DNA of 64,000 nucleotides from Candidatus Omnitrophota bacterium (GTDB lineage Bacteria; Omnitrophota; Gorgyraeia; 2-01-FULL-45-10), in NCBI GenBank assembly GCA_018823705.1, contig JAHJHP010000031.1, positions 1,982 to 65,981 on the forward strand. The letters are read 5' to 3'. The notes below the pieces were generated by a model that saw nothing but the letters and a program-made list of their open reading frames with translations, was not told the DNA's origin and ran no database searches. Below, one piece after another: positions 3,465 through 51,786 of the stretch (position 1 is the stretch's first letter; each line of letters begins with the position of its first letter). The position numbers and the translations under genes are program-made.

Positions 3465-4538
3465 ATGCTGATGAAAAGAATAACGATATTGTCCGCGTTT
3501 ATAGTCATAATTTTGTTCACGCGCACGGCTGTAATGGCTCAGGAAACTGCCGGGAGTGACGCGCAGAAATCGGCGAAGACAAAGAACGCGATAAGCTGGC
3601 AGTCGATAGGCCAGAAGATGAAAGAATACAAAGGAATTTTGAAGGAGATCGTCAGTGATGCCGAGAAGAGCCTTAAAAAGATGGAAGAAGAATCTAAGGC
3701 CCGTGAGAGTGAAAAAGCGATGAAGGAAGCCGCCAAAAAGGCGAATGCGGAAGCTATCAAAAAAGCGGCGAAAAAAGCAGCTAAAAAGAAGGCCGCGGAT
3801 GAAGTCGTCGTGAAGGCTAATAAGGCAGCTGAAAAGAAGGCCGCGAAAGAGGCCATCGCGAAGGCAAAGAAGGCCGAGAAAGAAGCCGCCGCGAAGGCAA
3901 AGAAGGCCGAGAAAGAGGCCATCGCGAAGGCAAAGAAAGCCGAGAAAGAGGCCATCGCGAAGGCAAAGAAAGCCGAGAAAGAGGCCGCCGCGCAGGCAAA
4001 GAAAGCCGAGAAAGAGGCCGCCGCGCAGGCAAAGAAGGCTGCCAGGCAGAAGGCCACGGATGAAGCCGCCGCGAAGGCTGCCAGAGAGATTGAAAGGAAA
4101 AGGTCGGAAGAAGCCGCTATAATGGCGAAGAGTGCGTCAAGATTAAAAATCACGGAGCCCACTCAGGAGCCCCGCCTGTTACCTGCTACTAGACGTCCTG
4201 TGAAAAAACCCAGAGCGGTAAGAGAGGTAAAAAAAGAGAGCTCCGCGTCAACCGCTAAAAGTTCAGTAGACGCTAGGAGGCTTACACCTACAGAATTGGT
4301 TATAATTCCGGTGACGCATGTGAGGAAAAGACACTTGATCGATAGGCCTTCACCGGAAGCTCAGATGATCGTTGCCAGTGAAGAAGTCTCCGCTATATAC
4401 AGGGATGCGGTAGCGCTTTACTGGGATAATAAATACAGCGATGCTAAAGCGAAGTTCGAACAAGTCCAAAAGGCATTGCCTGAATATGCGCGCACGAGCT
4501 ACTATCTGAGGCGCGTCAAGGAAAAGCTAAGTAAGTGA
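3465..4538 (+). CDS. membrane-anchored Lys/Ala/Glu-rich tandem-repeat protein (TolA-domain-II-like helical region plus Pro-rich linker plus C-terminal globular domain)
   Basis: N-terminal hydrophobic segment. About six copies of an 11-aa unit (KAKKAEKEAIA/AAA), followed by a PTQEPRLLPATRRPVKKP linker. Confidence 0.5.
   Translation: MLMKRITILSAFIVIILFTRTAVMAQETAGSDAQKSAKTKNAISWQSIGQKMKEYKGILKEIVSDAEKSLKKMEEESKARESEKAMKEAAKKANAEAIKKAAKKAAKKKAADEVVVKANKAAEKKAAKEAIAKAKKAEKEAAAKAKKAEKEAIAKAKKAEKEAIAKAKKAEKEAAAQAKKAEKEAAAQAKKAARQKATDEAAAKAAREIERKRSEEAAIMAKSASRLKITEPTQEPRLLPATRRPVKKPRAVREVKKESSASTAKSSVDARRLTPTELVIIPVTHVRKRHLIDRPSPEAQMIVASEEVSAIYRDAVALYWDNKYSDAKAKFEQVQKALPEYARTSYYLRRVKEKLSK
3850..4060 (+). 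repeat. 33-nt in-frame tandem repeat (about 6 copies) inside the CDS
   Basis: Repeating gcgaaggcaaagaaRgccgagaaagaRgcc... units encoding the KAKKAEKEA(I/A)A repeats. Confidence 0.8.
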
Positions 4539-4554
4539 TTAGTTATTAGGACGT

Positions 4555-4800
4555 ATTAGGGGACGTGTCACTTTGGCCTGCCTGCCTGCGACCTGTTTAC
4601 CAGCAGGCAGGCAGGGACACTCCACTTTTTGTAAATTATCCATAACTACCGGCAAATTAACTATAAGTAGCCCAGGTTACTATTGTTATCAGCAGTAGGG
4701 GAGGTTTACCTGCCCGCCCGCAGCCGTATTCTTGCGAGCAGGCGGGAACCTCCCCTACCATAGGTCTTCCCGCTCGCCTCCCCCAAAGTGACACGTCCCC
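4555..4800. mobile_element. MITE-like non-autonomous element, copy 1 (terminal inverted repeats ATTAGGGGACGTGTCACTTTGG ... CCAAAGTGACACGTCCCC) with internal nested hairpins
   Basis: Left end at 4555-4576 is the reverse complement of the right end at 4783-4800. Same termini as the element at 48349-48463. Contains internal GC-rich hairpins (cctgcctgcctgc...gcaggcaggcagg; ggggaggtttacctgcccgcc...ggcgggaacctcccc). Confidence 0.6.
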
Positions 4801-4907
4801 TTTAGCCTTGAGTTTAAGTTGGTTATTTGATAATATAAACGCAAGCTCGCCGGCACGATAAAGGCAATAGCACAGAAATATTGGCGCTAACATTTAGGAG
4901 AGTTGCG

Positions 4908-5387
4908 ATGAAGACGATGATTACATATTATTCGTTCAGTGGCAATACCGACAAGGTAGCGAAGATCTTTGCCGAAGCATTGAAAGCGAAGGGAGAGGTC
5001 TCCATGCAAAGGCTTAAACCCGCGGATGAGATCACCGCTTTTTCCGCCCAGTGCCGCGCGGCGTTTACAAGAAAGCGCGCGGAGCTTGGCCCCGGAGTGA
5101 ATTTTGACATGAGCCCGTTTGATCTTGTGATACTTGGCTGTCCCGTCTGGGCATTCGCTCCCGTTCCCGCTATGAACAGCTACCTTGATAAGGTGAACGG
5201 TTTGCATGGCAAACGCGTTCTGATCTTTTTGACCTCCGGCAGCGGGCTCGGAGTCGGCAGATGCTTTAAAAACATAAGAGAGGCTTTGCGTAGTAAGGGA
5301 GCTTCTTCCATAGAGGATATAAATATTCCCGACCGGAAACAGGGTGACACCGGATTTATAACCGCGTCCATTTCGAAGTTCCTGTAG
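4908..5387 (+). CDS. flavodoxin-like domain protein
   Basis: MKTMITYYSFSGNTDKVAKIFAEAL is a flavodoxin-type phosphate-binding loop. RBS aggagag 4894-4900. Start chosen at the ATG 7 nt downstream of the RBS rather than the track start. Confidence 0.6.
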   Translation: MKTMITYYSFSGNTDKVAKIFAEALKAKGEVSMQRLKPADEITAFSAQCRAAFTRKRAELGPGVNFDMSPFDLVILGCPVWAFAPVPAMNSYLDKVNGLHGKRVLIFLTSGSGLGVGRCFKNIREALRSKGASSIEDINIPDRKQGDTGFITASISKFL

Positions 5388-5403
5388 CGAAAGGCCCCGT
5401 ATA

Positions 5404-6435
5404 ATGCGCGTTGCGATGTATTATGCCAATGATGATGTCAGGCTCGAGGAGATGGTTAATCCCGTTATAGGCGAGGGCGAACTTCTAGTCCGCGTTGAGG
5501 CTTCCGGCATCTGCGGCAGTGATGTCATGGAATGGTACAGAATCCACCGGGTGCCGTTGGTGCTCGGTCACGAGATCGCGGGTACTGTCGCTTGCGTGGG
5601 TAAAGGCGTAGCGCGCTTCAAGGCAGGTGATCGGGTTGCCGTAGCTCACCATGTGCCGTGCCTGAAGTGCCGTTACTGCATGGATGGCCACGAGACGGCC
5701 TGCGAGACTCTGCGCAAGACCAATTTTGATCCGGGCGGATTCAGCGAATATGTGAGAGTGCCGAAGATCAATGTCGAAAAGGGGGTATTTGCGCTCCCCG
5801 ATAAAGTCTCGTTCGAGGATGCCACATTCATAGAGCCGCTCGCCTGTGTCCTGCGCGGCCAGCGCCTGGCAAAAATTAAAAAAGGCAAGACCGTTCTCGT
5901 AGTGGGAAGCGGTATCTCAGGGCTTCTCCACATAAAGGCTGCGCGCGCTGAAGGCGCCGGGCGCATATTCGCGACCGACATTTCAGATTTCAGGCTTGAG
6001 TGCGCGAGAAGGTCCGGCGCGGATCACGCCATAAACGCGGCGGAATACAGTCCTGCCATGCTTAGTCAACTGAACGGTGGATATCTTGCCGACTTTGTGA
6101 TAATCTGCGCCAGCGCTGCCGAAGCATTCGAGCAGGGGATCAGGTCGGTCGAGCGCGGGGGCACCATACTGATATTTTCAGCCGCCGCGGGCAAGGATGC
6201 GCTCATTCCGGTGCCGACTAACGATATATTCTGGCGCAATGAGGTGACGGTTACAAGCTCTTACGCCGGGAGCCCGCAAGACCACCTTAATGCTTTAGAT
6301 AAGATATGCCTTGAAAAAATAAGAGTATGTGATATGATAACGCACCGGTTTAAGCTGGACGAGACAGGGCTGGGATTTAAACTTGTCGCGGAAGCAAAAG
6401 AGTCGATGAAAATTATAATCCAACCACAACGATAA
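5404..6435 (+). CDS. zinc-dependent alcohol/threonine dehydrogenase family (MDR) protein
   Basis: GICGSDVMEW...GHEIAG catalytic Zn motif. C-x2-C-x2-C-x7-C structural Zn motif. GxGxxG Rossmann fold. Confidence 0.8.
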   Translation: MRVAMYYANDDVRLEEMVNPVIGEGELLVRVEASGICGSDVMEWYRIHRVPLVLGHEIAGTVACVGKGVARFKAGDRVAVAHHVPCLKCRYCMDGHETACETLRKTNFDPGGFSEYVRVPKINVEKGVFALPDKVSFEDATFIEPLACVLRGQRLAKIKKGKTVLVVGSGISGLLHIKAARAEGAGRIFATDISDFRLECARRSGADHAINAAEYSPAMLSQLNGGYLADFVIICASAAEAFEQGIRSVERGGTILIFSAAAGKDALIPVPTNDIFWRNEVTVTSSYAGSPQDHLNALDKICLEKIRVCDMITHRFKLDETGLGFKLVAEAKESMKIIIQPQR

Positions 6436-31764: not shown

Positions 31765-33041
31765 GGAATAAAAATAAAGTCCTTGATACTGACAAAGTAA
31801 GCAATCTGGAGCGTAAACGTATCGACGCGCAACTGCGCAAGAGCGATGAGCGCTATCGGGCACTTACTGAAATGGCCGAGGACCTTATATATATGGTAGA
31901 CAAGTCCGGGCACATAGTATATATAAATACCTTTGGCGCGGCGTACTTTGGTAAGAAACCCAAGGATATGATAGGTAAGTACCTTCCTGATATGTTCTTA
32001 CATGAAGAAGCAGCGCATTTTATGAGAAGCTTCAGAAAAGTCCTGAAGACCGGTAAGTCTGTCTTCATTTATGGTGAATTTGGATTTCATGGCAGTAGAT
32101 TCTGGCTGGATACGCGCCTGAGCCCTATAACCGACGATAACGGTAAGATAACGCATATAATGGGTATATCCCGGGACGTGACAAGCTATAGGCGGGCGGA
32201 GGAAGTGCTTGAGAGAGATAAGGTAGAGCTTGAGAGGCTGGTAAGAGAGAACAGTAAAAAACTTTTGGCAACTCAGAAAAAACTCGACAGGGCCGGCAGG
32301 TTAGCCGATATAGGGACGATCTCCGCAACGATTGCCCATGAATTGCGAAGTCCGCTGGCGGCTATCGGTTTAGCGGCTTATAATATAAGAACAAAGAGCA
32401 AGGACCCTCAGATCAGCGGCAATATACGGAATATAGAGATAAAGGTGCTCGAGAGTGACCAGATAATCAAGAATCTGCTGTTATACTCCGGGCTAAAATC
32501 GCCTATACGGGAGGTTGTAAAAGTTTGCGAGTTACTGAGCGAGTGCGTGGATCTTGCGCACTCTATGTTCCCGGAGCACGATATAAAGATACGTAAGATA
32601 TTCAAATGCCCGCGCGATACGACGTTGAAGGCGGATCCGGTGCAGCTGCAGGAGGTATTTAATAATATATTGAATAATTCCTGCGAGTCATTTGAGAAGA
32701 AGAAGGGCGACATAAAGATATCTGCATCCGTGTATAAGGAGGGTAAATTCAGAATAGTATTCAAAGATAACGGCCCGGGAATAAGCCCTGCGGTGCTTGA
32801 GCATATCTACGAGCCCTTCAACAGCACAAAAGCGGAAGGAACCGGATTGGGGCTGCCGGTCTGTAAGCAGATAGTAAATCTTCACGGCGGTAAGATGGAT
32901 ATAGTAAGTTTGCCGGGCAAGGGCACGACGATTACCATTTACCTGCCCGCCTGTGGTCGCACCCCACGCGGGCAGGCGGGACTTCCGCTTAAAAACGGTC
33001 AGGCACGTGGTCAGCAGAGGCCTATAAAAACCGAACCATAA
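31761..33041 (+). CDS. PAS-domain sensor histidine kinase
   Basis: PAS region. H-box IAHELRSPL. N/G1/G2 boxes (DNGPGISP, GTGLGL). Confidence 0.85.
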   Translation: MRNKNKVLDTDKVSNLERKRIDAQLRKSDERYRALTEMAEDLIYMVDKSGHIVYINTFGAAYFGKKPKDMIGKYLPDMFLHEEAAHFMRSFRKVLKTGKSVFIYGEFGFHGSRFWLDTRLSPITDDNGKITHIMGISRDVTSYRRAEEVLERDKVELERLVRENSKKLLATQKKLDRAGRLADIGTISATIAHELRSPLAAIGLAAYNIRTKSKDPQISGNIRNIEIKVLESDQIIKNLLLYSGLKSPIREVVKVCELLSECVDLAHSMFPEHDIKIRKIFKCPRDTTLKADPVQLQEVFNNILNNSCESFEKKKGDIKISASVYKEGKFRIVFKDNGPGISPAVLEHIYEPFNSTKAEGTGLGLPVCKQIVNLHGGKMDIVSLPGKGTTITIYLPACGRTPRGQAGLPLKNGQARGQQRPIKTEP

Positions 33042-33472: not shown

Positions 33473-33526
33473 GGCCTCGGTCGGAGACCTCGGCACTTAG
33501 CTAACACTGTGGCTTAATAAACTTGG
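33473..33526 (+). repeat. 54-nt leader repeat (family D: GGCCTCGGTCGGAGACCTCGGCACTTAGC-N12-GGCTTAATAAACTTGG), single copy, abutting the RBS
   Basis: Also present as two tandem copies at 36312-36417. Ends in cttggagg, i.e. it supplies or abuts the Shine-Dalgarno sequence. Confidence 0.7.
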
Positions 33527-33538
33527 AGGTGGCTTGAG

Positions 33539-35264: not shown

Positions 35265-35312
35265 AAAGCTTTGAGTTAGATTACACGTCCCCTAATTCAT
35301 TAGGATGACTTT

Positions 35313-36311: not shown

Positions 36312-36417
36312 GGCCTCGGTCGGAGACCTCGGCACTTAGCCAATATCGTGGCTTAATAAACTTGGCCTCGGTCGGAGACCTCGGCACTTAGCCAATATCG
36401 TGGCTTAATAAACTTGG
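36312..36417 (+). repeat. two tandem copies of 52-nt leader repeat family D, immediately upstream of the thi4 RBS
   Basis: Two near-identical units (ggcctcggtcggagacctcggcacttagccaatatcgtggcttaataaactt), head to tail, with no spacer. Confidence 0.75.
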
Positions 36418-36428
36418 AGGGCGGATAA

Positions 36429-37265: not shown

Positions 37266-37441
37266 GTAGCCCGGGCTCCTGCCTACCTGCTTTCCTATTG
37301 GCAAGTAGGCAGGCAGGTAAGCCCGGGCTACAATCGTGTATAACCGTAATAGTTTAGCCGGAAGAACAACTTACGACGTAGGGGACATTTAAATGTCCCC
37401 TACAACCTCGTAGAGATACTTCTTTATGCTAAACTATTACG
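37266..37441. repeat. intergenic palindromic repeat cluster: family B hairpin (GTAGCCCGGGCTCCTGCCTACCTGC...GCAGGTAAGCCCGGGCTAC) plus an adjacent ~100-bp imperfect palindrome
   Basis: Family B unit recurs at 51707-51786. Arms cgtaatagtttagc (37345-58) / gctaaactattacg (37428-41) enclose the palindrome gtaggggacatttaaatgtcccctac. Confidence 0.7.
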
Positions 37442-44335: not shown

Positions 44336-45567
44336 ATTCTAAATTATTCTCTGAGGCGCAAAAATATCTGGTGGGCGGCGTCAATAGCCCCGTGCGGGCT
44401 TTTAATTATGTAGGCGGTGACCCTCTTATAATTAAGAGAGGCCATGGCTCAAAAGTCTATGACCACGATGGTAATGAGTATATCGATTATGTGCTTTCAT
44501 GGGGAAGCCTCATTCTTGGCCATGCGTTTCCCGATGTTGTGAATGCGGTCAAGGCCGCGGCTTGCGACGGTTTGAGTTTCGGCACGACAAATATAAAGGA
44601 AGTGGAGCTGGCAAAGTTGATCCATAAGGCGATACCGTTTGTAGAAAAGATAAGGTTTGTCAATTCAGGCACAGAAGCTGTTATGAGCGCGGTGAGGCTT
44701 GCCAGAGGGCATACCGGCAGGGACAAGATCGTGAAGTTTGAGAACTCTTATCACGGACACGCCGATTATCTCCTAGTCTCAGGAGGCTCGGGACTCGCAA
44801 CCCTAAATATTCCGCAAAGCCCCGGTGTCCCCCGAAGTTTCATCAAAGACACAATGGTCCTTCCTTACGGCGATTTCCGAAAACTGGAAGAGGCATTTGA
44901 ACTGCACGGAAGAGAGATAGCTGCTGTGCTGGTGGAGCCCGTGGGAGGCAATTATGGTGTCATGCCCCCCGATACAGGTTTTTTGCGGCATCTAAGGAAG
45001 ATCACTGATCGATACTCCGCGCTTCTGATCGCCGATGAAGTGATCACCGGATTTCGTTTCTCATTCGGTTCTTTTATGCATAGGTCGGGCGTATTGCCCG
45101 ATCTTATATGCCTCGGGAAGATCATAGGCGGAGGGTTACCTATAGGAGCTTACGGCGGTGGCGGTAAGATAATGAATAAACTCGCTCCGCTCGGAAAAGT
45201 CTATCAGGCATCAACATTTTCCGGGAATCCGGTCGTTATGCAGGCAGGCATATCCACACTTAAAGTGTTAGCGTTATCCGGGGGAAGATATAGGCAGATT
45301 GAAAGATTCGCGGAACTTTTAAGCAGCGCTATTGAAAGAGCCGCGAGGTCATGTAATATCGATTTAAAAGTGAGCAGATTTGGCTCCATGTTCAGCCTGA
45401 AGTTTGAGAGAAAGGATGATTTTAAGAAGTTCTACAGAGGGTTGCTCCGGAGCGGAGTCTATTTTGCGCCTTCGGAATTTGAATCGAATTTTGTGTCATT
45501 TGCGCACACAAAAAAAGATATTGATGATACAATAAATTTGATAAGAGTTATTTTGGCGAAGATATAA
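44317..45567 (+). CDS. hemL: glutamate-1-semialdehyde 2,1-aminomutase
   Basis: Class III aminotransferase fold. Length and motifs (VNSGTEAVM, GKIIGGGLP) typical of HemL. Confidence 0.9.
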   Translation: MAKRTINSKLFSEAQKYLVGGVNSPVRAFNYVGGDPLIIKRGHGSKVYDHDGNEYIDYVLSWGSLILGHAFPDVVNAVKAAACDGLSFGTTNIKEVELAKLIHKAIPFVEKIRFVNSGTEAVMSAVRLARGHTGRDKIVKFENSYHGHADYLLVSGGSGLATLNIPQSPGVPRSFIKDTMVLPYGDFRKLEEAFELHGREIAAVLVEPVGGNYGVMPPDTGFLRHLRKITDRYSALLIADEVITGFRFSFGSFMHRSGVLPDLICLGKIIGGGLPIGAYGGGGKIMNKLAPLGKVYQASTFSGNPVVMQAGISTLKVLALSGGRYRQIERFAELLSSAIERAARSCNIDLKVSRFGSMFSLKFERKDDFKKFYRGLLRSGVYFAPSEFESNFVSFAHTKKDIDDTINLIRVILAKI

Positions 45568-45583
45568 AATAAGCGGAGGATAA

Positions 45584-46291
45584 ATGGAAAATATCGATTA
45601 TGAAGATTTAAAGAAACGGGGATTCTTAAGACAAGCCCAGGAAGGTTTTTTTGTATTAAGGACGAGAATGCCGGGTGGCAACTATAAGAGAGAAGACCTC
45701 GAAAAACTGGCCGTGATAGCGCAAAAGTATGCCAAAGGATTTGTCCATGCCACTGTCCGTCAGGGGCTGGAGATCCCTTTTATAAGATTTGAAAATATTC
45801 CTGAGGTCGAATCCGAGGTAAAAAAAACCGGTATTCTGATAGGTGCGTCCGGTCCGCGGCTCAGGACGACCGTTGCCTGCCCCGGCAACAACTGGTGCAA
45901 ACGAGGCCTCGTAAATACATTTTCTCTTGCCGATAGAATAGAAAAAGAGCCGGGGCTAAAATGCGGGTTAGACCTGCCGCACAAATTTAAGATAGCTATC
46001 TCCGGATGCCCCAACGCCTGTACGCGGCCTCAAGTCTCCGAGATAGGCATGCACGGTCAAGCCGATAGTCTGACGAAAGCGGCCGGCTATACCGTATATA
46101 TAGGAGGTTGCGGAGGCAGAATATCAAAGTCGGGTATAAAGCTCGAAAAAGTTTATACGGAAGATGAAGTTATGCGTCTGGTAGAGAAAGTGGTAAAATT
46201 TTATAAAGATCATGCTAAGCCCCGACAGCGGCTCGGCGCATTGATCGATGAATTCGGAATAGACAATTTTTATAAAACATGTTCGTGTTGA
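45584..46291 (+). CDS. small siroheme-[4Fe-4S] sulfite/nitrite reductase hemoprotein (low-molecular-weight assimilatory-type sulfite reductase-like)
   Basis: C-x5-C ... C-x3-C siroheme/Fe-S ligand pattern (CPGNNWC ... CPNAC) in a ~235-aa single-module protein. Confidence 0.6.
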   Translation: MENIDYEDLKKRGFLRQAQEGFFVLRTRMPGGNYKREDLEKLAVIAQKYAKGFVHATVRQGLEIPFIRFENIPEVESEVKKTGILIGASGPRLRTTVACPGNNWCKRGLVNTFSLADRIEKEPGLKCGLDLPHKFKIAISGCPNACTRPQVSEIGMHGQADSLTKAAGYTVYIGGCGGRISKSGIKLEKVYTEDEVMRLVEKVVKFYKDHAKPRQRLGALIDEFGIDNFYKTCSC

Positions 46292-46341
46292 TATGAGTTG
46301 CCCCCATATACACAAAGAGATACAATATGGGTGTGAGTAAT

Positions 46342-46380
46342 AGTCCGGGCTTAAGCCCGGACTACAATTGTGGATAACTT
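46342..46380. repeat. palindromic repeat family C (AGTCCGGGCTTAAGCCCGGACT plus CAATTGTGGATAACT)
   Basis: The CAATTGTGGATAACT 15-mer also occurs at 51772-51786 and, reverse-complemented, inside the MITE at 48386-48400. Confidence 0.65.
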
Positions 46381-46381
46381 T

Positions 46382-46615
46382 ATGAAGAAGATGTCTTTAA
46401 TAAAACTCAAGGCGAATCGCAAGGGCAGGATCGTTGAGATTTTAGGAGGCTCGAACTTGCAGAGCAGGTTGATGAATATGGGTGTGTTTAAGGGCAAGGA
46501 AATCAGTAAGCTCAGCCATGTTGGGCTGAGAGGCCCCGTAGTAATAAAATCCGGCAGAAGCATTCTAGCTTTAGGTCATGGCGTAGCAGCCAAAGTGATA
46601 TTAGAGACAGAATGA
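46382..46615 (+). CDS. feoA: FeoA family protein
   Basis: SH3-like FeoA (GRIVEILGGSNLQSRLMNMGVFKGKEI). Confidence 0.85.
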   Translation: MKKMSLIKLKANRKGRIVEILGGSNLQSRLMNMGVFKGKEISKLSHVGLRGPVVIKSGRSILALGHGVAAKVILETE

Positions 46616-48342
46616 TAAAGAAGATATATTTAATCGGTAATCCTAATGTAGGGAAAAGTGTAGTATTTTCACGTCTCACCGGCGTGCAGGTAATATCTTC
46701 AAACTATCCCGGTACTACCATAGAGCTTTGTAAGGGTTATCTCAGCTTAGGCGCCGAAAAGATCGAAATCGTAGACCTGCCCGGAACTTACTCGTTGGAA
46801 CCTACCTCAAAAGCGGAAGAAGCCGCAATCTCTTTATTAAAGGAATACTCCAAAGACGAAATTGTGGTCGTCAATGTACTGGATTCGACCAATCTGGAAA
46901 GAAACTTACTTCTCACCTTACAACTTATTGAAGATGGGTTCCCGACAATTGTATGCCTGAACATGTGTGATGATGCTGTTCATAAGGGTGTCCATATCGA
47001 TATCAAGACGCTGGAAGATATCCTCCATGTTCCGGTGATCTCGACCTGCGCGATAACGGGAGCAGGCATAAAATTATTGATCGAAAGGATCAAGGAAGCG
47101 GCCCCTGTTCCGAGAGATAAACTCCTCCATGAAGAGCAATGGAAAGAGATAGGTTTGATAATAAACCGGGTCCAGCGCCTGGAACATCGCCATCATACTT
47201 TCAGGGAGGCTTTAGAGGACGCATCCGTACGGCCAGTCACCGGTCTTGTAATGGCAGCAGGCGTAATTTACGCTTCATTTAAGATTGTGCGTTTTATAGG
47301 TGAGTTTATTATCAACAGAATAACGGACCCGATATTTATCAATCTTTACCAACCCATACTGGAAAAGCTGACCCGTCATTGGCAGGAACAGAGTTTTTTA
47401 TTTCATCTGCTGATAGGCGATTTAATCAACGGCAAGATCGACTTTAAACAATCACTCGGCGTATTAACAACGGCTCCATACATTGAATTCGGAATGGTAT
47501 TGCCGTATATCATCTCGTTCTATTTTATCTTAAGTCTTTTAGAAGATATAGGATATCTGCCGCGCCTGGCGATATTATTGGACAATCTTCTGCATCGGTT
47601 GGGGCTGCATGGTTTTGCGATCATTCCCATGCTTTTAGGTTTTGGATGTAACGTACCCGGCATATTAGCTACCCGTACCTTAGAATCGAAACGTGAGAGG
47701 TTTATCGCGGCGACATTGATCTCGATAGGCGTGCCGTGTGTGCCGTTACAAGCCATGATATTCGGATTATTAGGTAGCTTTGGAGGATTTTATGTAGCAG
47801 GGGTATATCTGGTATTATTTTCTTTAGTCCTGATATTAGGATTGATCCTGAACCGTGTCTTAAAAGGTTATAGCCCGGAATTCCTGCTGGAGATCCCTCC
47901 GTACAGATTTCCTCCGTTGGACATTTTAGGCAGGAAATTATACTTTCGCATAAAGGGGTTTATAATTGAGGCGGTTCCGATCGTGCTCGTTGGAGTTGCC
48001 GTTATAAACATCCTTATTTACTTTAACGTATTCAGTATAATATCCGGTTTTTTTGCGCCGGTTATTCACGATCTATTAGGACTGCCAAAAGAGTCGATAA
48101 TTGCGCTGGTGATCGGATTCTTCAGAAAAGATGTAGCGGTCGGGATGTTGATGCCATTAGGGCTTACTGCCAAGCAGCTATTCATCGCCGCGACATTATT
48201 GGCAATATCGTTTCCGTGCGTTGCCACGTTTATAATCCTGTGGAAAGAGTTGGGTTTGAAAGATTTGATCAAATCCACCCTCATTATGATAACTATAAGC
48301 ATCATCGTGGGCTCAGCGCTCAATCTTCTGATATTACGCTGA
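46612..48342 (+). CDS. feoB: ferrous iron transport protein B (short form, 576 aa)
   Basis: N-terminal GTPase G1 GNPNVGKS, G3 DLPG. Polytopic permease domain. Confidence 0.9.
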   Translation: MIKKIYLIGNPNVGKSVVFSRLTGVQVISSNYPGTTIELCKGYLSLGAEKIEIVDLPGTYSLEPTSKAEEAAISLLKEYSKDEIVVVNVLDSTNLERNLLLTLQLIEDGFPTIVCLNMCDDAVHKGVHIDIKTLEDILHVPVISTCAITGAGIKLLIERIKEAAPVPRDKLLHEEQWKEIGLIINRVQRLEHRHHTFREALEDASVRPVTGLVMAAGVIYASFKIVRFIGEFIINRITDPIFINLYQPILEKLTRHWQEQSFLFHLLIGDLINGKIDFKQSLGVLTTAPYIEFGMVLPYIISFYFILSLLEDIGYLPRLAILLDNLLHRLGLHGFAIIPMLLGFGCNVPGILATRTLESKRERFIAATLISIGVPCVPLQAMIFGLLGSFGGFYVAGVYLVLFSLVLILGLILNRVLKGYSPEFLLEIPPYRFPPLDILGRKLYFRIKGFIIEAVPIVLVGVAVINILIYFNVFSIISGFFAPVIHDLLGLPKESIIALVIGFFRKDVAVGMLMPLGLTAKQLFIAATLLAISFPCVATFIILWKELGLKDLIKSTLIMITISIIVGSALNLLILR

Positions 48343-48348
48343 GGCATA

Positions 48349-48463
48349 GGGGACGTGTCACTTTGGGACACTCCACTTTATATAAGTTATCCACAATTGT
48401 AGTCCGGGCTACAAGTTCGCTATTAGTTCTCTTAAGTGGAGTGTCCCAAAGTGACACGTCCCC
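48349..48463. mobile_element. MITE-like element, copy 2: 115 bp with perfect 30-bp terminal inverted repeats (GGGGACGTGTCACTTTGGGACACTCCACTT)
   Basis: First 30 nt are the exact reverse complement of the last 30 nt. The core carries the family C motif ttatccacaattgtagtccgggctac. Confidence 0.75.
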
Positions 48464-48491
48464 TAATTCGCGTTAAATCAAAATATATATA

Positions 48492-48543
48492 TTGACGTAG
48501 ATACGAGATGTGATATTATGGTTATGGACATATGTTCATAACC
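48492..48543 (+). promoter_or_regulatory. promoter (TTGACG-16-TATTAT) followed by a 24-bp near-palindrome GGTTATGGACATATGTTCATAACC (candidate operator)
   Basis: Read directly from the sequence. One mismatch in the palindrome. Located immediately upstream of the DUF134 regulator gene. Confidence 0.4.
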
Positions 48544-48556
48544 AGCGGAGATTATT

Positions 48557-48862
48557 TTGCGCCCAAAAAAGACCAGATGGATACGTTGTTTACCCGGCGA
48601 AAGATGCTTCAAGCCACTTTGCAAGCCTTTGAATAAACTGAAAAGCGTGCATCTTACTCTTGACGAACTTGAAGCCTTAAGGCTCGCAGATCTTGACGGA
48701 ATGAAACAGGTTGATGCAGCAAAAAGACTTAAGATATCCAGGCCCACATTCTCAAGGATCGTATCTTCAGCGCGGAATAAGATAGCTGATGGCTTAGTTA
48801 ATATCAAAGCTATAAGGATTGAAGGGGGTTGCTGTAGAGTGATAAGGAGGAACGCGCGATGA
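48557..48862 (+). CDS. DUF134 (UPF0251) family putative DNA-binding protein
   Basis: FKPLCKP...LTLDELEALRLADLDGMKQVDAAKRLKISRPTFSRIV sigma-70 region-4-like HTH. TTG start per the ORF track. Confidence 0.7.
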   Translation: MRPKKTRWIRCLPGERCFKPLCKPLNKLKSVHLTLDELEALRLADLDGMKQVDAAKRLKISRPTFSRIVSSARNKIADGLVNIKAIRIEGGCCRVIRRNAR

Positions 48863-50163
48863 AAGGTCTAAAGAAACTCTATTGGCTTATAGGCATATTC
48901 ATCGTTATGTACTTTTTGCCGCTGGGGAATCCCAAGATAACGAATGCCATCTTTGAAGCATTTAAGCTTCTTCAATGGTACGTAATTAATCATACGCTCG
49001 CATGCGTGGTACCGGCCATGTTTATAGCAGGTGCAATATCGACATTTCTGTCCCAGGCCTTTGTTATGCGATATCTCGGCCCTAACGCAAACCGCGGCAT
49101 GGCCTATGCCGTAGCGTCTGTGTCGGGAGTTATACTCGCAGTATGTTCCTGCAGCGTCTTGCCGATGTTTGCCGGTATTTATACCATGGGAGCGGGGCTT
49201 GGGCCCGCAAGCGCTTTTCTTTATTCGGGTCCCGCGATAAACGTCATGGCAATATTTTTATCAGCACGCGTTCTTGGGTTCGACATAGGATTAGCCAGGG
49301 CAGTTGGCGCGATAGTCTTTGCCTGTGTCATAGGGCTATGCATGGCCTTTATCTTCAGGCGATCCGAACATGCCCGAACAAAAAAAGCGATGGAGCTTCC
49401 TCCTCCTCCGCATCCTGCGAGGCCGTTATGGAAGACAGCGCTCTACTTCTTATGCATGGTATTATTTCTTGTTTTTAGCGATTGGTATAATACCAACGAT
49501 GTAACTATTACGCTAAAAAACGGGATAGTAATGAAGGTGAATATCCAATATTCCACGCAGGACTTTATCGAAGCTAAGAAGTACGAAGCCGGTGGTAAGC
49601 TGGCTATAGATGCCGAGCGCCTAAACAGGCCTGATATAGCCGAAATAAAACCGGAAGATAACTTTGTCATGAGAGTTCACGCCATTAAGTGGTACCTCGC
49701 CGGGCTTATGGGGTTGACTATACTTATTATGCTGCATCGATGGTTCAAAAAAGACGAGATCCGACAGTGGCTTACTGCGACATGGGACTTCGGGATGATG
49801 ATAGTGCCGCTTCTATTCGGCGGTGTATTCTTGACCGGGTTTGTTGGAGCGTTACTTCCTGAGAAAGTGGTTGCGGCGTTTGTTGGAGGCAATAGCCTAT
49901 TTTCGAATTTTTTTGCATCCTTTATAGGCGTATTTTGGTACTTTGCCACTCTTACCGAGATACCCATTACGCAAATGTTAATGCGTCTTGGCATGGGCAA
50001 GGGGCCTGCGCTTGCGCTTCTTCTGGCCGGCCCTGCATTGTCAGTGCCGAGCATCCTGGTTATTAATAAGGTATTAGGATGGCGCAAGACGCTTGTTTTC
50101 TTCGTGCTTATAGTGGGATTTTCGACTATAGCGGGATATGTTTTTGGAATGATAATACGTTAA
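48859..50163 (+). CDS. DUF318 (YraQ/ArsP-like) family permease
   Basis: Polytopic protein with the Cys-containing motif AVCSCSVLPMFAGIYTMGAG. Confidence 0.7.
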   Translation: MKGLKKLYWLIGIFIVMYFLPLGNPKITNAIFEAFKLLQWYVINHTLACVVPAMFIAGAISTFLSQAFVMRYLGPNANRGMAYAVASVSGVILAVCSCSVLPMFAGIYTMGAGLGPASAFLYSGPAINVMAIFLSARVLGFDIGLARAVGAIVFACVIGLCMAFIFRRSEHARTKKAMELPPPPHPARPLWKTALYFLCMVLFLVFSDWYNTNDVTITLKNGIVMKVNIQYSTQDFIEAKKYEAGGKLAIDAERLNRPDIAEIKPEDNFVMRVHAIKWYLAGLMGLTILIMLHRWFKKDEIRQWLTATWDFGMMIVPLLFGGVFLTGFVGALLPEKVVAAFVGGNSLFSNFFASFIGVFWYFATLTEIPITQMLMRLGMGKGPALALLLAGPALSVPSILVINKVLGWRKTLVFFVLIVGFSTIAGYVFGMIIR

Positions 50164-50191
50164 ATGCAGGACTTAAAGGCGAGGAGATGAG

Positions 50192-50425
50192 ATGAAAATC
50201 GAAATTTTAGGAGTAGGATGTCCCAAGTGCAAACAACTTACTGCCAATGCAGAAGCGGCAGTAAGGGAGCTTAATATAGCCGCTGAAGTTTCCAAGGTGA
50301 CGGATATTGGAAAAATAACCGAATATGGCGTGATGATGACTCCTGCGCTTGCCCTTGATGGCACGATAGTTTCATTCGGCAAGGTATTAAGCAAGGATGA
50401 GATTAAGAAGATTATTTCAAAATAG
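50192..50425 (+). CDS. small thioredoxin-fold protein (redox-active disulfide protein 2-like)
   Basis: 77 aa. N-terminal CPKC redox motif in MKIEILGVGCPKC. Confidence 0.7.
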   Translation: MKIEILGVGCPKCKQLTANAEAAVRELNIAAEVSKVTDIGKITEYGVMMTPALALDGTIVSFGKVLSKDEIKKIISK

Positions 50426-50435
50426 GGAGGAAAGA

Positions 50436-50873
50436 TTGAAGAAACTATTTTTTATTCTTCTGGCAATTACTGCGCTAAGTAGTAGTGGAATAATTATTGC
50501 GCCGCCAGCTCAAGCAGGAGAGGACGCAAAAGGCGCTCATGTCGTCGCTTATTATTTTCACGGGACAATGCGCTGCTCTACCTGCCATAAACTGGAACAG
50601 TATTCAAAGGAAGCGATAGAGACTAATTTTAAAGATGCGCTTCAATCCGGAAAGCTGGAATATAAAGTTGTAAATGTGGAAGATAAAGGCAACGAACACT
50701 TTTGCGATGACTATCAACTTTATACGAAATCACTCATCCTGTCTTTAATCGAAGACGGTAAAGAAATAAAATGGAAAAATCTTGATAAAATATGGGAATA
50801 CGTCGGTAATAAACAGAAGTTTCTTGATTATGTTAAGGCGGGAGTCACCGATTTTCTGAAGGACGCTCAATGA
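50436..50873 (+). CDS. secreted CxxC protein (possible periplasmic thiol-disulfide oxidoreductase)
   Basis: Signal peptide KKLFFILLAITALSS. CSTCH motif. TTG start after RBS gggagg. The track ORF extends upstream in-frame across the previous gene's end. Confidence 0.4.
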   Translation: MKKLFFILLAITALSSSGIIIAPPAQAGEDAKGAHVVAYYFHGTMRCSTCHKLEQYSKEAIETNFKDALQSGKLEYKVVNVEDKGNEHFCDDYQLYTKSLILSLIEDGKEIKWKNLDKIWEYVGNKQKFLDYVKAGVTDFLKDAQ

Positions 50874-51559
50874 CAGAGATATTAATAAGCTTTGTTTCGG
50901 CATTGTGGCTGGGGATTTTGACATCAATTAGTCCGTGTCCTTTGGCCAGTAACGTGGCCGCCATCTCTTTTCTGTCCAAGAAGATAACCCATCCGGCACT
51001 TGTGTTTATCTCAGGATTGGCGTATACGCTGGGACGTATGGCCTCTTATGCGTTCCTGGGATGGATTATCATTAGTTATCTTTTAAGCGTTCCGCAGGTT
51101 GCTCAGTTCTTACAAAAATACATGGGCAAAGCTCTGGGGCCGATATTAATTCTTACCGGGCTTATTTTGTTGGAAATAATTACTATTCGCCTGCCAGGAC
51201 TATCGCTATCACAAAAGCACCATAATAAACTTGCGGAGTCCGGTGCCCCGGGCGCCTTTTTGCTTGGTTTTATCTTTGCTCTGGCGTTTTGTCCAATTTC
51301 GGCGGCGTTATTCTTTGGGAGCCTTATTCCTTTAGCTATTACCAATAAAAGCGGTATCGTGCTGCCATTTATTTACGGAATCGGCACAGGATTACCGGTT
51401 CTTTTATTTTCTGTTGCCATTGCGTTAGGTGTGAGATCGCTGAGTCATTGGTTTCATAGGATCACGCGGCTGGAATACTATACCCGAAAGATTACAGGAG
51501 TCGTATTTGTCCTCGTCGGCTTATACTACGTAGGGATATATGTGTTGAAATTATTTTAA
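50870..51559 (+). CDS. ccdA: cytochrome c biogenesis protein CcdA / DsbD-core family transmembrane thiol-disulfide transporter
   Basis: 6-TM protein with conserved Cys in TM1 (SISPCPLA) and TM4 (AFCPISAAL). Confidence 0.75.
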   Translation: MTEILISFVSALWLGILTSISPCPLASNVAAISFLSKKITHPALVFISGLAYTLGRMASYAFLGWIIISYLLSVPQVAQFLQKYMGKALGPILILTGLILLEIITIRLPGLSLSQKHHNKLAESGAPGAFLLGFIFALAFCPISAALFFGSLIPLAITNKSGIVLPFIYGIGTGLPVLLFSVAIALGVRSLSHWFHRITRLEYYTRKITGVVFVLVGLYYVGIYVLKLF

Positions 51560-51706: not shown

Positions 51707-51786
51707 GTAGCCCGGGCTCCTGCCTACCTGCTTTCCTATCGGCAAGTAGGCAGGCAGGTAAGCCTGAGCTGCAATTGTGGATAACT
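51707..51786. repeat. palindromic repeat family B copy 2 fused to family C 15-mer
   Basis: gtagcccgggctcctgcctacctgctttcctatcggcaagtaggcaggcaggtaagcctgagctgcaattgtggataact. Nearly identical to 37266-37330. Confidence 0.7.

Follow-up and report, generated by a model that had tools for sequence, protein, structure and literature searches.

REPIN-type repeat doublets in a Candidatus Omnitrophota genome and their probable RAYT transposase

Introduction

Repetitive extragenic palindromic (REP) sequences, the inverted doublets known as REPINs (REP doublets forming hairpins), REP-associated tyrosine transposases (RAYTs) and the RAYT class named TIRYTs are already established (Nunvar et al. 2010, PMC2817692; Bertels and Rainey 2011, PMC3116915; Di Nocera, De Gregorio and Rocco 2013, PMC3733652; Bertels et al. 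2017, PMC5581495). Here, we describe short inverted-repeat elements in a 64,000-nt stretch of a Candidatus Omnitrophota genome (contig JAHJHP010000031.1 of assembly GCA_018823705.1, positions 1,982 to 65,981; hereafter, the window). An initial annotation, made from the letters alone, had read two of these elements, called copy 1 and copy 2 below, and one solo end fragment as a mosaic family resembling MITEs, small transposable elements bounded by inverted repeats. They are very probably REPIN-type doublets, in which a 32-nt unit that we call REP-A stands in inverted orientation on either side of a variable spacer, and which belong to an apparently single-copy RAYT located outside the window in the same genome. 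The best explanation for this protein is an HUH tyrosine (Y1) transposase of the IS200/IS605 superfamily, from the long TIRYT class, flanked by two inverted REP-A units.

The system resembles REPIN-RAYT systems (PMC2817692; PMC3116915; PMC5581495) in several respects. Two inverted short palindromic units and a spacer form one long hairpin in single-stranded DNA (ssDNA), with conserved arms and a variable spacer. The elements are extragenic, and singlets and remnants occur too. An HUH tyrosine transposase flanked by its own units lies in one context per assembly and is syntenic across species. The described systems are mainly from Proteobacteria, whereas the host here belongs to the phylum Omnitrophota. 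In addition, the protein here is long, at 196 aa, and only about 20-27% identical to the RAYTs of E. coli or Pseudomonas fluorescens, REP-A carries no GTAG tag, and the copy number looks modest (two in 64 kb and 22 metagenome contigs).

The protein is closest to the TIRYT class, which was described together with "TIRtrons" and families of terminal inverted repeats (TIRs) (PMC3733652). As in that class, inverted repeats of 26-34 nt stand on either side of the gene at a distance of about 700 bp, the TIRs form dimers and clusters, and TIRs of close relatives contain GGGGACAC, fitting the published motif GGGGWSAS. REP-A itself nearly fits this motif, with GGGGACGT agreeing at 6/8 positions and TGGGACAC at 7/8. 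REPs have been reported in the Planctomycetes-Verrucomicrobia-Chlamydiae (PVC) superphylum and inside UvrD-type genes, and intragenic REPs are reported to prefer repair helicases (PMC3733652); REPs lie within a UvrD-type helicase gene here as well (locus L001, below). Unlike the published TIR families, which are only moderately abundant and come from few genomes, the family here is well populated and made of regular doublets.

REP units are mixed with short motifs in the bacterial interspersed mosaic elements (BIMEs) of E. coli and also here, where the motifs are a (CCTG)3 hairpin, GTAG palindromes and the sequence ATATTTTCGCCTGAGTCAT. The module sequences are different, and hairpins are nested in the loops of other hairpins here, whereas those of BIMEs stand side by side in alternating orientation. 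With IS200/IS605 elements and palindrome-associated transposable elements, the system shares the Y1_Tnp superfamily, the lack of a target-site duplication and the expectation of ssDNA hairpin ends. The ends of IS200/IS605 elements are different subterminal hairpins, not inverted repeats. The enzyme here also differs from those of IS200/IS605 in being apparently single-copy and closest to TnpA_REP.

Results

Two doublets and one remnant in the window

The 19-mer AGGGGACGTGTCACTTTGG has four exact matches in the window, in two inverted pairs, while shuffled sequences gave an expectation of 0.02. The initial annotation was thus right about the exact inverted termini and about the existence of two matching elements. 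Copy 2, however, is 119 bp long and not 115 bp, and copy 1, put at about 245 bp, measures 246 bp. The coordinates of all features are collected in Table 1.

Copy 2 is an intact doublet. Its arms can alternatively be drawn as 44 nt at 89% complementarity, and the whole element folds as ssDNA at -41.2 kcal/mol (z = -13.5). It begins 4 nt past the stop codon of feoB (46612-48342) and lies upstream of a DUF134/ArsP-permease gene pair.

Copy 1 lies between the stop codon of an open reading frame (ORF) at 3465-4538 and a flavodoxin gene at 4881-5387, and folds as ssDNA at -61.4 kcal/mol (z = -8.9). Its left REP-A is complete but split after ACTTTGG by a 39-nt hairpin, module C, and only its left side retains the inner part GACACTCCACTT. 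The right unit keeps its outer 19-20 nt, and the full 32-mer has nine mismatches there. Module C of copy 1, CCTGCCTGCCTGC-13 nt-GCAGGCAGGCAGG, folds at -16.7 kcal/mol (z = -6.1). A 64-nt GTAG-tagged palindrome further in folds at -21.4 kcal/mol (z = -5.6) and has GTAGGGGA on both of its strands, at 4695 and 4751. These two modules bear out the annotated interruption of a shared core by palindromic insertions. Copy 1 is best explained as an old doublet whose right unit is now without its inner half and which has gained two small palindromic modules of other kinds from the same genome. Three NCBI assemblies made independently (L070, L071 and L072) contain the same composite, as does a JGI contig (L022).

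The annotated solo end fragment, ACACGTCCCCTAATTC, was confirmed: it equals the last 12 nt of the right arm of copy 2 plus its 4-nt flank. By our own arithmetic, an exact 12-mer match is expected by chance about 0.008 times in 2 x 64 kb. The fragment lies where a response-regulator gene and a GDT1-family gene are separated by 48 nt, and is a decayed REP end. All REP-A copies of the window, two copies and this remnant in 64 kb, are intergenic, and both copies are found just downstream of the stop codons of co-directional genes. A Hamming scan detected no further degenerate REP-A copies in the window. Rfam scans at gathering thresholds gave no match in the whole window or in L013, L014, L035 and L051. 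A scan with the pattern GGGACGTNTNCA was uninformative since the pattern was poorly designed.

Fold and flanks of REP-A

Alone, the REP-A 32-mer TAGGGGACGTGTCACTTTGGGACACTCCACTT folds as an imperfect hairpin with a bulge and a mismatch (-6.3 kcal/mol, z = -3.5), and a perfectly palindromic variant reaches -14.9 kcal/mol. Doublets as ssDNA fold into a single long hairpin at -41 to -43 kcal/mol, with z around -14. The sequence 5' of REP-A was compared over 89 unique ends. Position -1 is A in 76/89 and position -2 is T in 66/89; at position -3, 49 ends have A, 33 have T and one has G. The flanks GA, CA, AT and TT are also seen beside the usual T-A outside GGGG...CCCC. Weak conservation reaches about 8 nt outward from the REP-A ends and, therefore, we read the TA as belonging to the repeat itself. 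Around 32 doublets, no flanking direct repeat was seen other than this palindromic TA, which is itself variable, so the check for target-site duplications that the initial annotation had proposed came out negative.

A RAYT-type transposase between REP-A units

No transposase was found in the 64-kb window by tblastn with the RAYT and 12 RAYT/TIRYT sequences from the literature. Outside it, at loci L004, L012 and L061, an inverted REP-A pair with its units 693 nt apart surrounds one 196-aa ORF. The same arrangement, with a spacing of about 700 bp, is present at L066-L069 and at L051, a contig of metagenome Ga0180007. The ORF of L051 is protein P0001, which is 58% identical to that of L004. P0001 is also encoded in GCA_018815945.1, GCA_018813565.1, GCA_018817565.1 and ERZ928008, under the source name Candidatus Omnitrophota. 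Its context is identical in each: TatC, DUF362, a Fer4 protein and the RAYT, with REP-A on both sides. The RAYT has this one genomic context per assembly (TatC-DUF362-Fer4-RAYT, three assemblies). The PEPCK protein of the window recurs residue for residue in GCA_018813565.1, GCA_018815945.1, GCA_018815955.1 and the ENA sample ERZ928008. Since GCA_018815945.1, GCA_018813565.1 and ERZ928008 contain both P0001 and this PEPCK, the RAYT and the window are in the same genome. An exact-protein look-up of feoB gave no match, probably due to a differing start call.

The RAYT ORF matches Pfam Y1_Tnp at 1.9e-16. Against the NCBIfam model REP_Tyr_transpos (NF047646, cut-off 80 bits), L012 scores 81.3, L004 77.7 and P0001/L051 74.3 bits; the only other NCBIfam match is the IS200 model, at about 20 bits compared to a cut-off of 55. 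The initial annotation's suggestion of a transposase elsewhere in the genome holds for the IS200/IS605 superfamily but not for IS630/Tc1. A phmmer search of PDB sequences with a single RAYT gave no match, so a profile was required. With a profile of 29 homologues, the best solved relative is 4ER8, the E. coli TnpA_REP (E = 8.3e-6). The alignment places H60-F-H62 on H59-M-H61 of 4ER8, and Y120/N124, in the invariant RYIERNP, on Y115/N119; the roles of H59, H61, Y115 and N119 are known from PMC3479197. All of 40 homologues keep H60, H62, Y120 and N124, an argument for a working enzyme. An AlphaFold model (pLDDT 89.6, pTM 0.85) retrieves 4ER8_A as its top Foldseek match (E = 6.4e-9, TM 0.65/0.76). 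The IS200/IS605 TnpAs all rank lower, with TM around 0.43/0.6, and the fold still matches ISDra2 and IS608 TnpA.

P0001 was then compared by BLASTP to the proteins in Additional file 5 of Di Nocera et al. (2013). The highest score was with gbm 2474 of Geobacter (137 bits, 37% identity over the full length), followed by dau 2153 of Desulforudis (120 bits) and rba 2408 of Rhodopirellula (116 bits). RAYTs of GTAG-type REPs scored far lower (P. fluorescens pfs 3939, 58 bits; E. coli b228, 32 bits). On sequence similarity, P0001 belongs to the long TIRYT class of RAYTs.

The RAYT has at least 1524 relatives at E <= 1e-10, and of the 120 listed, those with a source name are nearly all from Omnitrophota. 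Species of two lineages with 67% RAYT identity keep the gene order fba-RAYT-lptF/G, which suggests vertical inheritance. Within the REP-A clade, RAYTs of 58-67% identity retain the same flanking 30 nt. The same unit around proteins as distant as 58% identity (L004 and L051) is in keeping with enzyme and repeat having been inherited together over a long time. More distant RAYTs, at about 55% identity, have different 26-34-nt inverted repeats at the same spacing of about 700 nt, some of which contain GGGGACAC (L079 and L081).

Two further observations were made at RAYT loci. L079, from another organism, holds two divergent RAYT paralogues 2.5 kb apart (871-1458 and 4001-4585), each with its own inverted-repeat pair. 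At one RAYT locus, the assemblies L066 (at 7301) and L067 (at 5200) split 90 nt downstream of the RAYT unit. One branch leads into a REP-A::C doublet plus a tRNA-like sequence, the other into a different inverted repeat (CAGGGACGTTTTCAAAA...TTTTAAAAACGTCCCT) and a sigma-54 gene.

The REP-A population across genomes and metagenomes

The 19-mer AGGGGACGTGTCACTTTGG was scanned against the GTDB representative genomes and a metagenome collection. The GTDB scan gave 18 loci, 10 of them in metagenome-assembled genomes (MAGs) of several Candidatus Omnitrophota species, and two, L001 and L003, in MAGs titled Planctomycetia that carry the REP-A unit. The other six (L007, L010, L011, L013, L014 and L018) were set aside as chance or unrelated matches because their contexts differ; about four chance 19-mer matches were estimated. 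In L013, L014, L018 and ten metagenome contigs, the 19-mer lies inside a conserved 716-aa coding ORF of Planctomycetota/Anaerolineales MAGs, and the match in L010 (Amorphus) was likewise dismissed for its different context. In L007 (6468-6600) and L011 (649-776), from Clostridia/Eubacteriales MAGs, the 19-mer sits within a different hairpin (TTGCCAAAGGGGACGTGTCACTTTGGCAA) of inverted-repeat elements of about 130 bp. We treated this as coincidence, although the elements could be related.

The metagenome scan gave 47 loci, 22 of them from Ga0180007. Two Ga0180007 contigs are 99.9% identical to the window, L022 over 3675-5995 and L048 over 44766-48469, and this metagenome therefore has the same population. 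REP-A occurs on 22 of its contigs, about 19 of which are additional to the two loci of the window and the RAYT unit. According to the initial annotation, termini confined to three sites would have spoken for local palindromic terminators; these 19 or so contigs and the several Omnitrophota species carry further copies. In its canonical Ga0180007 form, the doublet measures 94-98 bp, with about 33 nt of spacer between REP-A and its inverted counterpart (L021, L027, L031, L036, L040 and L046). Shorter and longer doublets, perfect 33-nt palindromic singlets (L025 and L060) and contigs terminating within the repeat were also found; perfect-palindrome singlets occur in L002 and L003 too. When nine independent doublets were aligned, the arms were invariant over 28-30 nt and the spacers were variable. 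Metagenome contigs often end at these repeats (L029, L065 and L073).

REP-A positions turn over between species. The dnaK-dnaJ junction of the UBA6215 lineage holds a 62-nt doublet; the window has no repeat there, its dnaK and dnaJ overlapping at TAATG.

Three further observations concern REP-A loci. L048 agrees with the window to the right end of copy 2 (CCCCTAATTC) and then resumes at window position 51011 with 95% identity. By comparison with L048 1-103, it is without the 2.54 kb at 48466-51010, where the window has the DUF134 gene, the ArsP-type permease, an ORF of 158 aa and the first part of a DsbD-like gene. Either a deletion variant next to the REPIN or a chimeric assembly would account for this difference. 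In L001, a REP-A singlet (2010-2060) and a doublet (2727-2815) lie in frame inside a 1049-aa UvrD-helicase/PD-(D/E)XK ORF, which is kept open; they are translated as ...GDVSLGDVSKRDRSP... and ...GTCGLGTCQKGTGRKAGKEGGVSQSDTSP.... In metagenome Ga0272441, from another organism (L035 1600-6500, L054, L055 and L032), REP-A follows almost every small ORF on one strand. In each unit, REP-A precedes a CCCAAGC...GCTTGGG hairpin and its T-run, a GGTATAAT box and an inverted REP that is degenerate, and there are 11 units in 10 kb. These units look like REP doublets with a terminator-like hairpin and a possible promoter box. L032 has half-REPs in tandem.

Mosaic modules and nested hairpins

Module C is inserted at the same REP-A junction in L034, L042, L056, L057 and L067 as in copy 1. 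It is found alone in L025, L060, L066 and at window position 32942, and L040 carries a tandem array of three. Inside GTAGCCCGGGCT stems it makes up what the initial annotation called family B, at 37266 and 51707, so the resemblance noted there was borne out by the repeat-family comparison. Four REP-A::C loci have homologous loops (GACCTGTTTACCA and one- or two-base variants), suggesting that the composite spread as a unit.

A second palindromic repeat family, GTAGYCCRGGCT, has a true GTAG tag and 10 matches in the window, compared to 0.78 expected. It is present in the spacers of both window copies, and another GTAG palindrome is in the spacer of L064. No cognate transposase for this family was found in the sequence data examined. 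The 20-nt module ATATTTTCGCCTGAGTCAT abuts REP-A at three unrelated loci.

Small palindromes recur precisely in hairpin loops: in the REP-A loop (always ACTTTGG/GACAC, six loci), in the TA loop of GTAGCCCGGGCT stems and at the apex of REPIN spacers. This recurrent nesting is the least ordinary aspect of the system. Instead of reflecting random decay, the (CCTG)3 and GTAG palindromes might have been inserted by a single-strand-specific HUH-type activity that targets the unpaired loops of extruded hairpins, an idea we hold as speculative and unlikely. If it were true, the mosaic repeats would be built hierarchically, hairpin in loop. To our knowledge, such a construction has not been described previously.

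Several other sequences were observed beside these modules. The 9-mer TTATCCACA, which we take to be the DnaA-box consensus, occurs three times in the window (46369-46377 on the minus strand, 48387-48395 on the plus strand and 51776-51784 on the minus strand; 0.38 expected). Each occurrence belongs to the CAATTGTGGATAAC flank of a GTAG palindrome. The perfect 26-nt palindrome GTAGGGGACATTTAAATGTCCCCTAC (37378-37403) starts with GTAGGGGA, in common with the 64-nt palindrome of copy 1, and this start resembles that of REP-A, TAGGGGAC. An intergenic direct repeat, GGCCTCGGTCGGAGACCTCGGCACTTAGCC..AATAAACTTGG, has three 57-nt aligned copies, at 33473-33529, 36312-36368 and 36364-36420. The last two form a tandem with a 52-nt offset immediately upstream of ORF 36429, and the first is upstream of ORF 33733. 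Upstream of copy 1, ORF 3465-4538, which has no Pfam match, contains an in-frame 33-nt tandem repeat of about seven K/A/E-rich copies (3785-4063).

Table 1. Coordinates of the repeat features in the window and of the REP-A pairs around RAYT genes
Feature	Sequence	Position	Strand	Remarks
Exact 19-mer AGGGGACGTGTCACTTTGG	window	4558-4576	+	exact-match scan
Exact 19-mer AGGGGACGTGTCACTTTGG	window	4783-4801	-	exact-match scan
Exact 19-mer AGGGGACGTGTCACTTTGG	window	48348-48366	+	exact-match scan
Exact 19-mer AGGGGACGTGTCACTTTGG	window	48446-48464	-	exact-match scan
Copy 1, decayed composite REPIN-type doublet	window	4557-4802		246 bp; exact 19-nt inverted termini
Copy 1, left REP-A, outer arm	window	4557-4576	+	TAGGGGACGTGTCACTTTGG
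Copy 1, (CCTG)3 hairpin (module C)	window	4577-4615		39 nt, GC-rich; in left REP loop, between ACTTTGG and GACAC
Copy 1, left REP-A, inner arm	window	4616-4627	+	GACACTCCACTT
Copy 1, spacer	window	4628-4694		about 30 first nt match canonical REPIN spacer (TTTGTAAATTATCC.TAACTACCGG)
Copy 1, truncated GTAG palindrome in spacer	window	4667-4680		GTAGCCCAGGTTAC, truncated GTAGCCCAGG; GTAGYCCRGGCT match at 4667
Copy 1, GTAG-tagged palindrome	window	4695-4758		64 nt; GTAGGGGAGGTT...AACCTCCCCTAC; encloses C-like inner hairpin
Copy 1, right REP-A, outer arm	window	4783-4802	-	inner arm missing; 1/20 mismatch
REP-A outer-end remnant with usual flank	window	35283-35298	+	16 nt; ACACGTCCCCTAATTC = ACACGTCCCCTA + ATTC
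Copy 2, intact REPIN-type doublet	window	48347-48465		119 bp; two perfect 32-nt inverted REPs
Copy 2, left REP-A	window	48347-48378	+	TAGGGGACGTGTCACTTTGGGACACTCCACTT
Copy 2, spacer	window	48379-48433		nested small GTAG palindrome TTGTAGTCCGGGCTACAA (48397-48414); 9-mer TTATCCACA (48387-48395)
Copy 2, right REP-A	window	48434-48465	-
GTAG palindromes	window	37266-37331, 51707-51772, 46340-46365, 48399-48412, 4667-4680		with or without (CCTG)3 hairpin in loop
REP-A pair flanking RAYT	L004	6722/7435
REP-A pair flanking RAYT	L012	2300/3013
REP-A pair flanking RAYT	L051	197/947
REP-A pair flanking RAYT	L066-L069, L078

Discussion

The mechanism that we propose is modeled on E. coli TnpA_REP and IS608 (PMC3479197). 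On ssDNA, a REP would fold into an imperfect hairpin (GGGGACGTGTC / GACAC-TCC), and the RAYT would bind this hairpin along with a short conserved 5' stretch (..TA). It would then cut and rejoin single strands through Tyr120 and His60/His62, by way of a 5'-phosphotyrosine intermediate, and doublets would be moved or copied into extragenic DNA without a target-site duplication. We infer transposition of REP-A doublets by this analogy. Hints of mobility come from the dnaK-dnaJ junction, which is filled in one species and empty in another, and from the REPIN-adjacent 2.5-kb difference in L048. The initial annotation's phrase "actively recombining" goes beyond this evidence.

Several points weigh against the reading of these elements as RAYT-dependent REPINs. 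The lone REP-A hairpin is weak (-6.3 kcal/mol), and the unit would also fit a pair of direct GGGAC repeats lying 15 nt apart. The canonical GTAG is absent 5' of the REP-A stem in the 89 unique ends, where the tag is WTA(G), and because the flanking TA is palindromic, it is formally indistinguishable from a TA target duplication. P0001 scores under the NCBIfam REP_Tyr_transpos cut-off (74.3 compared to 80), and the TIRs of the RAYT relatives at 55% identity contain direct GGTGCCA repeats and show no clear hairpin. Several strains or species may have contributed the 22 Ga0180007 contigs, so that the count is that of a metagenome and not of a single genome. Also, the model enzyme, E. coli TnpA_REP, is only about 20% identical to the RAYT.

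One alternative keeps closer to the initial annotation and takes the elements as classical MITEs, deletion derivatives of a DDE insertion sequence such as IS630/Tc1-mariner with a TA target, mobilised in trans through their TIRs. The elements are indeed short with perfect terminal inverted repeats, and the bases outside GGGG...CCCC, mostly T-A (66/89 and 76/89), could be read as a TA duplication. However, this TA varies (GA, CA, AT and TT), conservation extends about 8 nt outward, the arms fold like REPs, and perfectly palindromic singlets occur (L025, L060, L002 and L003). The gene between an inverted REP-A pair is always a Y1 HUH transposase and never a DDE enzyme. With this being the only transposase between the termini, and with no target-site duplication around the 32 doublets beyond the TA, we rejected a DDE-type MITE as highly improbable. 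A dispersed, non-autonomous and mosaic family, as annotated, is what remains of that proposal, with the anatomy of REPIN/TIR doublets that probably belong to a RAYT of the domesticated type. Assembly artefacts or chance matches have a negligible probability: metagenome contigs often break at these repeats, and some of the public 19-mer matches are due to chance, but identical structures are present in independent NCBI, ENA and JGI assemblies, and the four exact matches in the window compare to 0.02 expected. We consider the artefact reading refuted.

Another possible explanation is that these are immobile functional palindromes, such as terminators, mRNA 3' stabilisers or protein-binding sites, with an incidental or historical link to the RAYT. 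Co-directional genes end just before both window copies, the arms do not vary from species to species, and in L035, from the other organism, the REP is fused to a hairpin and T-run after almost every small ORF. On the other hand, the window copies have no T-run, and a terminator scan found no terminator-like site at the ends of either element, so the annotated suggestion of terminator modules fails in the sense of intrinsic terminators. The positions of the repeats also differ between related genomes, and the active-site residues of the RAYT are invariant in 40 homologues. As a replacement for the REPIN-type reading, this explanation is unlikely, though slightly less so than the DDE-type MITE. 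The two are compatible and not exclusive, and a host-level role, for example as an mRNA 3' hairpin, is possible. The REPs of E. coli are both mobile and functional.

A full-text literature search found no published description of REP, REPIN, RAYT, IS200 or MITE-type repeats in Omnitrophota/Omnitrophica. This agrees with the initial annotation's statement that the elements are undescribed for this organism, but their kind is well described (PMC3116915; PMC2817692; PMC3733652). The literature examined gave no biochemical work on the TIRYT class and no comparably regular repeat family. These findings extend REPIN/RAYT-type repeat populations to Candidatus Omnitrophota, an uncultivated PVC-related phylum, and tie the long TIRYT class of RAYTs to a doublet family that is well populated. 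Since the repeats break metagenome assemblies of this lineage and mark points of strain-level rearrangement, they would be usable as strain markers, as the initial annotation had proposed.

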